Assembly (NCBI RefSeq): GCF_030013595.1 | Contig: NZ_CP122768.1 | From: Escherichia coli | GTDB lineage: Bacteria > Pseudomonadota > Gammaproteobacteria > Enterobacterales > Enterobacteriaceae | Reading direction: 5' to 3' (one strand) | DNA: 64,000 nucleotides | Shown: positions 13,601 through 29,939 of the stretch, piece by piece | Layout of the letters: every line of letters begins with the position of its first letter | Position numbering within the stretch: the first letter of the stretch is position 1 | Notes under the pieces: model-generated | The model's database searches: none | Seen by the model: the letters and a program-made list of their open reading frames with translations, nothing else | What the model was told of the DNA's origin: nothing | Translations under genes and position numbers: made by a program

Positions 13601-13673
13601 GTGCAAAGGAAAACGTTTCCGCTTATCCTTTGTGTCCGGCAAAAACATCCCTTCAGCCGGAGCATAGAGATTA

Positions 13674-14720
13674 ATGACTGCACCATCCCAGGTATTAAAG
13701 ATCCGCCGCCCAGACGACTGGCACCTTCACCTCCGCGATGGCGACATGTTAAAAACTGTCGTGCCGTATACCAGCGAAATTTATGGACGGGCTATCGTAA
13801 TGCCCAATCTGGCTCCGCCCGTGACCACCGTTGAGGCTGCCGTGGCGTATCGCCAGCGTATTCTTGACGCCGTACCTGCCGGGCACGATTTCACCCCGCT
13901 GATGACCTGTTATTTGACAGATTCACTAGACCCTAATGAGCTTGAGCGTGGATTTAACGAAGGCGTGTTCACCGCTGCAAAACTTTACCCGGCAAACGCA
14001 ACTACTAACTCCAGTCACGGCGTGACGTCAGTTGACGCAATCATGCCGGTACTTGAGCGCATGGAAAAAATCGGTATGCCGTTACTGGTGCATGGTGAAG
14101 TGACACATGCAGATATCGACATTTTTGATCGTGAAGCGCGCTTTATTGAAAGCGTGATGGAACCGCTGCGCCAGCGCCTGACTGCGCTGAAAGTCGTTTT
14201 TGAGCACATCACCACCAAAGATGCTGCCGACTATGTCCGTAACGGAAATGAACGGCTGGCTGCCACCATCACTCCGCAGCATCTGATGTTTAACCGCAAC
14301 CATATGCTGGTTGGTGGCGTGCGTCCACATCTGTATTGTCTACCCATCCTCAAACGCAATATTCACCAACAGGCATTGCGTGAACTGGTCGCCAGCGGTT
14401 TTAATCGCGTATTCCTCGGTACGGATTCTGCGCCGCATGCACGTCATCGCAAAGAGAGCAGCTGCGGCTGCGCGGGCTGCTTCAACGCCCCAACCGCGCT
14501 GGGCAGTTACGCTACCGTCTTTGAAGAGATGAATGCTCTGCAGCACTTTGAAGCATTCTGTTCTGTAAACGGCCCGCAGTTCTACGGGTTGCCGGTCAAC
14601 GACACATTCATCGAACTGGTACGTGAAGAGCAACAGGTTGCTGAAAGCATCGCACTGACTGATGACACCCTGGTGCCATTCCTCGCTGGGGAAACGGTAC
14701 GCTGGTCCGTTAAACAATAA
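13674..14720 (+). CDS. pyrC: dihydroorotase
   Basis: 348-aa [49 protein letters not shown]... (HxH metal site). Confidence 0.95.
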
Positions 14721-14756
14721 AAATCGTAGCTTCCTGTTGTCATTAGGTTATTTTAC

Positions 14757-14772
14757 CTGTATAAATAACCAG
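14757..14772 (+). promoter_or_regulatory. LexA operator (SOS box) in the dinI promoter
   Basis: CTGTATAAATAACCAG read directly: CTG-N10-CAG palindrome 22 bp upstream of the dinI ATG. Confidence 0.8.
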
Positions 14773-14793
14773 TATATTCAACAGGGGGCTATT

Positions 14794-15039
14794 ATGCGAA
14801 TTGAAGTCACCATAGCGAAAACTTCTCCATTGCCAGCTGGGGCTATTGACGCCCTGGCTGGCGAACTTTCCCGCCGTATTCAGTATGCGTTTCCTGATAA
14901 TGAAGGCCACGTATCGGTACGTTATGCCGCAGCGAATAATTTATCGGTTATTGGCGCGACAAAAGAAGATAAACAGCGCATTAGCGAAATTCTCCAGGAA
15001 ACGTGGGAAAGCGCCGATGACTGGTTTGTCAGCGAATAA
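14794..15039 (+). CDS. dinI: DNA damage-inducible protein I
   Basis: 81-aa reading from ATG at 14794: MRIEVTIAKTSPLPAGAIDALAGELSRRIQYAFPDNEGHVSVRYAAANN... Confidence 0.93.
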   Translation: MRIEVTIAKTSPLPAGAIDALAGELSRRIQYAFPDNEGHVSVRYAAANNLSVIGATKEDKQRISEILQETWESADDWFVSE

Positions 15040-15060
15040 TATGCAGTGATTTTTGTTTTT

Positions 15061-15085
15061 GCCGGGTCGCCCCGGCTTTTTTATT
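15061..15085 (+). terminator. rho-independent terminator after dinI
   Basis: GCCGGG-TCGC-CCCGGC hairpin followed by TTTTTTATTTT. Confidence 0.75.
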
Positions 15086-15328
15086 TTACTTACAAATTTC
15101 GAGTACAAAATTTCTACACTTCCTCAAAATAACTGCACAATATGCTAAAAAAATATGAATGACATGCTGTTTTATTGTTCATATAAATCTTAAAAGCAAA
15201 AATTTATCTGTTCCCCCCTTTAAAAATTCGGTGAATACCCTTACTTATTGGTATACTGAAGTTGCTTCAGATAAAAACGCATTGAACCTCGAATAACGTT
15301 GTCTAGTAACACGAATTAGGGGGCCATG

Positions 15329-15583
15329 ATGGAAAAAAATAATGAAGTCATTCAGACTCATCCGCTCGTAGGGTGGGACATCAGCACCGTTGATAGCTAT
15401 GATGCGCTGATGTTGCGTTTGCACTACCAGACCCCAAATAAGTCCGAGCAGGAAGGGACTGAAGTTGGTCAGACGCTCTGGTTAACCACTGATGTTGCCA
15501 GACAATTTATTTCGATATTAGAAGCAGGAATCGCCAAAATTGAATCCGGTGATTTCCCGGTAAACGAGTATCGGCGTCATTAA
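15329..15583 (+). CDS. bssS: biofilm regulator BssS (YceP)
   Basis: 84-aa MEKNNEVIQTHPLVGWDISTVDSYDALMLRLHYQTPNK... Confidence 0.9.
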   Translation: MEKNNEVIQTHPLVGWDISTVDSYDALMLRLHYQTPNKSEQEGTEVGQTLWLTTDVARQFISILEAGIAKIESGDFPVNEYRRH

Positions 15584-15697: not shown

Positions 15698-16816
15698 ATG
15701 AAATACGATCTCATCATTATTGGCAGCGGTTCCGTAGGCGCTGCCGCCGGGTATTATGCAACCCGCGCCGGTTTAAACGTGCTTATGACCGACGCCCATA
15801 TGCCACCGCATCAACACGGCAGCCACCACGGCGATACGCGATTAATTCGCCATGCTTATGGTGAAGGCGAAAAGTATGTCCCACTGGTTCTCCGCGCGCA
15901 AACGCTGTGGGATGAACTCTCCCGCCACAACGAAGAAGATCCCATTTTTGTACGCTCTGGCGTCATTAACCTTGGCCCGGCTGATTCCACATTTCTCGCC
16001 AACGTCGCCCACAGCGCCAAACAATGGCAACTCAACGTTGAAAAGCTCGATGCGCAAGGGATTATGGCCCGCTGGCCAGAAATACGCGTCCCGGACAACT
16101 ACATCGGCTTATTTGAGACTGATTCCGGTTTTTTGCGCAGCGAACTGGCGATTAAAACCTGGATCCAACTGGCGAAGGAAGCGGGCTGTGCGCAGCTGTT
16201 CAACTGCCCGGTCACCGCAATTCGTCATGACGATGATGGCGTAACTATTGAAACGGCTGACGGTTATTATCAGGCGAAAAAAGCGATTGTCTGCGCGGGA
16301 ACATGGGTAAAAGACCTGCTCCCGGAGCTGCCTGTCCAGCCCATACGCAAAGTATTTGCCTGGTATCAGGCCGATGGTCGCTATAGCGTGAAGAATAAAT
16401 TCCCGGCGTTTACCGGTGAACTGCCCAATGGCGATCAATATTATGGTTTTCCGGCAGAAAACGACGCGTTGAAGATTGGCAAACATAACGGAGGCCAGGT
16501 TATCCATTCAGCGGATGAACGTGTTCCGTTTGCGGAAGTGGTCAGCGATGGTTCGGAAGCCTTCCCGTTCTTGCACAATGTATTGCCGGGTATCGGTTGC
16601 TGCCTGTACGGCGCTGCCTGCACCTATGATAATTCGCCTGACGAAGATTTTATTATCGATACCCTACCCGGCCACGATAATACACTGCTCATTACCGGCC
16701 TGAGTGGGCACGGTTTTAAATTTGCGTCAGTTTTAGGGGAAATAGCTGCCGATTTTGCGCAAGACAAAAAAAGCGATTTTGATTTGACGCCATTCAGGCT
16801 TTCCCGCTTCCAATAA
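15698..16816 (+). CDS. solA: N-methyl-L-tryptophan oxidase
   Basis: 372-aa [37 protein letters not shown]... FAD-binding GxGxxG. Confidence 0.94.
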
Positions 16817-24183: not shown

Positions 24184-24316
24184 GTATTTTTATTGGCTCG
24201 TTGTTTTTGCCAGATGTGGCGTGAACGCCTTATCCGACCTACAAAATCTTGCAAAATCAACACATTGCAGGAGCGATGTAGGCCTGATAAGCGTAGTGCA
24301 TCAGGCAACTACGTTT

Positions 24317-28499
<4,183 letters not shown>

Positions 28500-28781
28500 T
28501 CAGCACGCTGGCTCATGGATTAAGCACCTGATTGCAACCGTTTTCACTTTCCGTGCTTCTCCTAAAGACAGAAGCATCGACTTCGTGTAGGGTTTGCCAG
28601 CAAATTTATTTATCAACCGTCTTACAGACGCTTCCATTCTGGTTAGTGGTAGCGATGATGCTATGCATTAAAACCTTGAAGCCTGCGCCTGGCGCGGTCA
28701 GGTCGGTGTCGCTATGGCAACAAGCCTAAAGGCATAACCCGACAGGGATAAGACGAAAAATCCGAGATTAGTTAACCATAT

Positions 28782-29939
28782 ATGAATCCAGTACCCGCGC
28801 AACGTGAATATTTCCTCGACTCCATCCGCGCCTGGCTGATGTTGTTAGGGATCCCTTTTCATATTTCTTTAATCTATTCGAGCCATACATGGCATGTGAA
28901 TAGCGCCGAACCGTCATTGTGGCTGACCCTTTTTAATGACTTCATCCACTCGTTCCGCATGCAGGTATTTTTCGTTATATCCGGGTACTTTTCCTACATG
29001 CTTTTTTTACGCTATCCCTTGAAAAAATGGTGGAAAGTACGTGTCGAACGTGTAGGTATCCCGATGTTAACAGCCATCCCCCTACTGACATTACCGCAAT
29101 TTATTATGCTGCAATACGTCAAAGGGAAAGCGGAAAGTTGGCCTGGCCTGTCATTGTATGACAAATATAATACGTTGGCCTGGGAATTAATATCACACCT
29201 GTGGTTTTTACTGGTGTTAGTAGTCATGACGACGCTGTGCGTATGGATATTTAAACGCATCAGAAATAATTTAGAAAATTCTGATAAAACGAATAAAAAA
29301 TTCTCGATGGTAAAACTATCGGTGATTTTTTTGTGCCTCGGCATCGGCTATGCGGTAATAAGAAGAACGATTTTTATTGTGTATCCGCCCATTCTGAGTA
29401 ACGGCATGTTCAATTTTATTGTCATGCAAACGCTATTTTATTTGCCGTTCTTTATCCTCGGCGCACTGGCTTTCATTTTCCCTCACCTTAAAGCCTTGTT
29501 TACCACGCCGTCTCGTGGCTGTACCCTTGCAGCAGCATTGGCGTTTGTCGCTTATTTACTCAACCAGCGCTATGGCAGTGGCGATGCCTGGATGTACGAA
29601 ACCGAGTCGGTGATCACCATGGTCCTCGGTCTGTGGATGGTAAATGTGGTCTTCTCCTTTGGCCACCGTTTGCTTAACTTCCAGTCAGCGCGGGTGACTT
29701 ATTTTGTTAACGCATCGCTGTTTATCTATCTGGTTCACCACCCGTTAACGCTGTTTTTCGGCGCATACATTACACCGCACATCACCTCCAACTGGCTTGG
29801 TTTTCTCTGTGGCCTGATATTCGTAGTAGGGATTGCGATAATTCTGTATGAAATTCATTTACGCATCCCGTTACTGAAGTTTTTGTTCTCTGGTAAACCG
29901 GTTGTTAAGCGTGAGAACGATAAAGCACCAGCCCGTTAA
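28782..29939 (+). CDS. opgC: glucan succinyltransferase OpgC (MdoC)
   Basis: 385-aa polytopic membrane acyltransferase [37 protein letters not shown]... Confidence 0.9.

Follow-up and report, generated by a model that had tools for sequence, protein, structure and literature searches.

The question raised by this locus is whether a short inverted repeat in front of the Escherichia coli dinI gene is a genuine LexA operator, or SOS box, and how such an operator would be placed with respect to the promoter that it controls. The repeat lies in a window of 64,000 nucleotides, which is the whole stretch of DNA that was analysed (contig NZ_CP122768.1 of RefSeq assembly GCF_030013595.1). The 16-mer CTGTATAAATAACCAG is found on the plus strand at positions 14757–14772, and both the sequence and the coordinates in the initial annotation, which had described the site as a canonical fit to CTG-N10-CAG, are confirmed. 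The half-sites, CTG at 14757–14759 and CAG at 14770–14772, are inverted and stand exactly 10 bp apart, which is the arrangement of two CTG motifs reported as a requirement of the LexA operator (PMC5999292). The 16-bp core is enclosed by the 20-mer ACCTGTATAAATAACCAGTA at 14755–14774, a feature to which no strand is assigned, and the local sequence around the box reads ...TTTTACCTGTATAAATAACCAGTATATTC.... The functional operator is this 20-mer, extending beyond the 16-bp core alone, and it is almost certainly the LexA operator, and the only one, that the E. coli dinI promoter has. It occurs once in the window, even when three mismatches are allowed, and 19 nt separate its end from the dinI ATG.

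The identity of the gene is secure on several counts. The coding sequence occupies 14794–15039 on the plus strand and specifies 81 amino acids; its frame runs uninterrupted from 14794 up to the stop codon at 15037–15039, and a longer listed open reading frame (14662–15039) holds dinI in frame. The product matches the Pfam DinI family PF06183 over profile positions 1–63 of 63, with an E value of 2.1e-29 and a score of 102 bits (cut-off 24.2), is identical to K-12 DinI at 81 of 81 residues, and is annotated as dinI in RefSeq. Upstream lies pyrC, an amidohydrolase reading frame at 13674–14720, and downstream are bssS (15326–15583) and, beyond it, solA (15698–16816), all on the plus strand and in keeping with the gene order yceB-pyrC-dinI-bssS-solA on the E. 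coli chromosome. Of 5426 complete E. coli genomes, 5425 carry a 1-kb stretch around the box, with the annotation pyrC, dinI and bssS. The window also contains RNA elements that exceed the Rfam gathering score, namely the PyrC leader directly before pyrC (13624–13673, 68.7 bits), the ES036/CssrF sRNA at 24243–24285 (45.7 bits) and the ES056 sRNA at 34380–34471 (119.7 bits).

Over 64 kb the bare CTG-N10-CAG pattern does not rise above chance and proves nothing alone, as CTGT-N9-CAG has 8 matches in the window against 5.3 ± 3.0 in shuffled sequence. The full 20-mer is far above chance and fits the profile of known operators. A published table gives 18 E. coli LexA motifs upstream of UV-induced genes, that of dinI among them (PMC3009722, Table 4), and a strand-symmetrised position weight matrix was built from the 17 others. 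On this leave-one-out matrix the dinI 20-mer scores 20.9 bits, which falls inside the range of 13.7–27.7 bits covered by the 17 training sites; this is the comparison with curated LexA operators called for in the initial annotation. A score of 20.9 bits has an analytic P of about 5e-8 per position, which amounts to about 0.003 expected occurrences per 64 kb. When 200 sequences of 64 kb were simulated with a Markov-1 model, the highest value reached was 17.9 bits, and their maxima averaged 11.8. The runner-up 20-mer in the window reaches only 11.0 bits on the same matrix. This second-best match, at 28774–28793, was considered as a further LexA site and rejected, given that the simulated maxima average 11.8 bits.

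A similar picture is given by the heterology index, which was recomputed by the Berg-von Hippel/Lewis method on the 18-site set and stands at 3.7 for the dinI box, or 4.95 when dinI is left out. By the leave-one-out values the dinI box has the sixth lowest index of the 18 boxes. The published rule for LexA operators is a heterology index below 15. Published index values use a different reference set, so that the recomputed ones are not directly comparable with them.

In relation to the gammaproteobacterial palindrome TACTG(TA)5CAGTA, the dinI box shares the CTG-N10-CAG core, an AT-rich spacer that starts with TAT, and the 3' flank TA, and it differs at five of the 20 positions (1, 2, 10, 14 and 15), all of which carry low information. 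The word canonical therefore means, for this box, that it fits the profile while falling short of a perfect palindrome. At its 5' end the E. coli box reads ACCTG, whereas AACTG is found in most other enterobacteria. The K-12 dinI operator is identical at the site, and the 25-mer TTACCTGTATAAATAACCAGTATAT is entered for dinI in the published collection (PMC3009722).

Where the operator sits in the promoter is defined by a published transcription start. The primary start of dinI in differential RNA sequencing is at MG1655 position 1121509 on the minus strand (PMC12987492). The MG1655 coordinates of dinI (1121242–1121487), together with an alignment that is identical in this region, place this start at window position 14772 on the plus strand, which is the G of the right-hand CAG. 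With +1 at 14772, the LexA box extends from -17 to +3, a -10 hexamer TATAAA (14760–14765, plus strand, five of six matches to TATAAT) falls at -12 to -7, and a -35 hexamer TTGTCA (14737–14742, plus strand, five of six matches to TTGACA) falls at -35 to -30, both hexamers having been read manually. They are separated by a promoter spacer of 17 nt (14743–14759), and the -10 hexamer lies within the left half of the LexA box. The operator thus overlaps both the -10 hexamer and the transcription start of dinI, and it lies directly in front of the gene, as the initial annotation had it. A Shine-Dalgarno sequence AGGGGG is directly readable at 14783–14788 on the plus strand, 5 nt before the ATG.

A consensus promoter scan reported no plus-strand promoter in front of dinI. 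The scan missed the promoter because its rule demands a T at position 6 of the -10 element and the hexamer here is TATAAA; the negative result is therefore not evidence that a promoter is absent, and the published start fits the manually read hexamers exactly. Other negatives of the same scan should be read with this TATAAA miss in mind. The sequence TATATT at 14773–14778 was also tried as a -10 element and rejected, as its best -35 spacer is 15 nt and the start would fall inside the Shine-Dalgarno region.

At the other end of the gene, a terminator scan places an intrinsic terminator, GCCGGGTCGCCCCGGC with a T run behind it, at 15061–15086 on the plus strand, and RNA folding gives it a 6-bp all-GC stem. 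With this terminator 3' of the dinI stop codon, the dinI mRNA is predicted to be monocistronic and about 310 nt long, running from 14772 to 15061–15086. On the upstream side, pyrC transcription may run into the LexA-bound dinI promoter, no intrinsic terminator being predicted in 14721–14793.

The matrix was also used to look for another LexA box at the dinI promoter, and no other 20-mer in 14725–14790 scores above 0 bits. In Salmonella a weak second LexA box has been reported for dinI at 42 bp, with a heterology index of 17.6.

The promoter region is highly conserved within E. coli. In the stretch that begins at the pyrC end and includes the start codon of dinI, 86 of 86 nt are identical to K-12 MG1655. 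Among 5426 complete E. coli genomes, 5401 contain the 62-nt promoter stretch, from the -35 hexamer to the ATG, and 4597 match it at 100% identity. Five of the 5406 matches to this stretch sit on records typed as plasmids.

Conservation beyond the species was followed in a sample of one genome per species, giving 80 dinI loci from about 25 enterobacterial genera that include Escherichia, Citrobacter, Salmonella, Enterobacter, Kluyvera, Kosakonia, Buttiauxella, Cedecea and Atlantibacter. A LexA box of at least 19.4 bits is found upstream of dinI in all 80 loci. The CTG and CAG half-sites are invariant (80/80), and the flanking T at +2 and A at +3 are kept in 78 and 75 of the 80 species, respectively. 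TATAAA occurs at the same offset in 73 of the 80 orthologues, and either TTGTAA or TTGTCA is found at the -35 offset in 54. With the upstream regions aligned, the majority-base frequency stands at 0.905 for the box, against 0.50 for the 12 nt immediately before it and 0.65 for the remaining intergenic sequence, and it reaches 0.99 in the G run of the Shine-Dalgarno sequence (14784–14788, 81 rows). The left half-site is better conserved than positions 14–15 in the right half, as would be expected if LexA and the -10 hexamer both constrain it. Since the left half of the box doubles as the -10 hexamer, its conservation comes in part from the needs of the promoter and not from LexA.

The distance to the start codon is similarly maintained, with the box standing 18–21 nt from the ATG in 77 of 81 loci (the 80 species together with the E. 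coli locus, L001). The four exceptions are insertions in the dinI 5' leader, and the LexA box is retained in all of them. Two Trabulsiella loci (L033 and L034) have a leader insert of about 41 nt that leaves the box 60–62 nt from the ATG, and in two Buttiauxella loci (L062 and L080) an insert places it at 145 nt. In these loci the box is still strong, at 22–25 bits, and the insert lies between the box and promoter on one side and the Shine-Dalgarno sequence or ATG on the other, at about 20–145 nt upstream of dinI in Buttiauxella and about 20–60 nt in Trabulsiella. The Buttiauxella insert would seem to resemble an ERIC repeat.

The same arrangement is associated with DinI homologues carried by phages. 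Among 77 homologues in viral contigs, with 49–56% identity, 72 have a LexA box in front of them, the commonest distance to the ATG being 19 nt. The viral copies mostly carry the box TACTGTTTATTTATACAGTA, in which the internal spacer sequence differs and the LexA half-sites are kept. As the phage spacing mostly equals the chromosomal 19 nt, the operator, ribosome-binding site and dinI-type gene appear to travel as one module. The Salmonella dinI gene and its three Gifsy prophage copies have the same box-to-ATG distance of 19 bp as E. coli.

Published experiments also support this operator. LexA binding has been measured on 28 E. coli operators, and a gel-shift experiment with the dinI operator is presented in Fig. 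3D of that study (PMC5999292). The genes induced most prominently by UV in a tiling-array study include dinI (PMC3009722). After ciprofloxacin treatment, the log2 rise of E. coli dinI mRNA is 1.9 after 10 min and 3.7 after 75 min, and the signal of its protein, in a ‘signalomics’ measure, is also up. Induction by nalidixic acid is 22.8-fold for Salmonella dinI, and in Klebsiella the LexA ChIP occupancy of the dinI promoter drops after mitomycin C. The initial annotation had regarded the box as expected for an SOS gene and as not novel, and both statements stand; the site appears verbatim as the dinI LexA motif in the published table, has been bound by LexA in the gel shift, and is accompanied by induction with UV and ciprofloxacin. 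The dinI SOS box is already known and there is nothing novel at the site.

The straightforward reading of dinI repression is promoter occlusion, which we infer from the geometry because both the -10 element and the start point lie under a LexA dimer on -17 to +3. As long as the DNA is undamaged, LexA sits as a dimer on both the CTG and CAG half-sites of the dinI operator, and by covering the -10 hexamer and the start site it would block RNA polymerase from the core promoter. Upon DNA damage, RecA filaments on single-stranded DNA stimulate the self-cleavage of LexA, which is well established, and the operator is vacated. The dinI gene is then transcribed from 14772 as the predicted monocistronic mRNA of about 310 nt, ending at 15061–15086, and the DinI so made binds RecA filaments. 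At stoichiometric levels DinI is reported to stabilise RecA filaments, and when its level is high, to inhibit the cleavage of UmuD as well as the recombinase activity of RecA (PMC6590174).

Other explanations for the box can be weighed against this reading. It might be a chance CTG-N10-CAG in an AT-rich intergenic region, without LexA binding, and the bare pattern, with 8 occurrences in the window against 5.3 expected, does not tell against this. Chance of this kind is scarcely credible for the full site, whose 20.9 bits exceed the best of all 200 simulations (17.9) and would be expected about 0.003 times per window, whose half-sites are both invariant in 80 species, and for which a LexA gel shift on the operator and induction by damage have been published. 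Alternatively, the conserved block might represent the core promoter only, its likeness to a LexA box being incidental. Promoter function would indeed conserve part of the block, with TATAAA in the left half-site and the transcription start in the right. Nevertheless, a promoter has no need of a CTG at -15 to -13, of a CAG at -2 to +1 placed 10 bp away, or of T and A at +2 and +3, and it is these positions that are kept, in 80/80 species for CTG and CAG and in 78/80 and 75/80 for the flanks. Moreover, phage homologues with the different spacer of TACTGTTTATTTATACAGTA retain the half-sites, and the Klebsiella orthologue has LexA ChIP occupancy at its promoter, all of which makes a promoter-only origin of the block a negligible prospect.

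A further proposal would add to the LexA operator rather than replace it, in that bound LexA may, besides repressing initiation at dinI, act as a roadblock to read-through from pyrC. The gene ends at 14720 on the same strand, 73 nt before the dinI ATG, and the scan of 14721–14793 for intrinsic terminators predicts none between pyrC and the dinI promoter. That scan is crude and covers intrinsic, not Rho-dependent, terminators, and the published dinI start is a strong primary start that is enough to explain induction; a roadblock role is accordingly considered very unlikely. Repression at the dinI promoter itself by LexA on the 20-bp operator remains the preferred reading.

The dinI operator can also be compared with that of Klebsiella, where the box overlaps the transcription start, as in E. 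coli. The 3'UTR of Klebsiella dinI is longer by a stretch from which the sRNA DinR is produced, and this stretch is reported to be Klebsiella-specific. By analogy, the E. coli dinI mRNA might also yield a 3'-derived regulatory RNA under the control of the dinI operator. This is unlikely, because the pairing region in Klebsiella is reported to be genus-specific. If it were true, the dinI operator would gate an SOS-controlled riboregulator besides the DinI protein.

The strain from which the window derives is one other than K-12, as is evident from an accessory island downstream of tRNA-Ser; the dinI locus is unaffected. The island lies in the stretch 40072–64000, directly after tRNA-Ser(GGA) (40072–40159), and of 5426 complete E. 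coli genomes no more than 377 cover at least 80% of it. In Ecol_316, which is the strain closest at dinI, the content at the island position is different. The island contains a cluster resembling fatty-acid or polyketide synthases, with an acyl carrier protein (ACP), two ketosynthases (one of 852 aa) and a FabZ-like dehydratase, along with an SDR reductase, AcpS, a malonyltransferase, an ABC transporter and a LolA-like protein. A two-partner secretion pair, consisting of a ShlB/FhaC-type protein of 539 aa (55880–57499) and an exoprotein of 1270 aa (57588–61400), is encoded there too, and fimbrial genes are found from about 62791.

As a known operator, the dinI site is useful only as a positive control, and in this respect the scan picked a textbook SOS operator correctly. 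The real site is separated cleanly by its 20-bp profile together with its promoter position, which the bare CTG-N10-CAG rule does not achieve. As a small comparative detail, the operator, the -10 hexamer and the ribosome-binding site form a module, with a spacing of 19 nt to the ATG, that has been kept over about 25 genera of enterobacteria and in the majority of the dinI homologues borne by phages.
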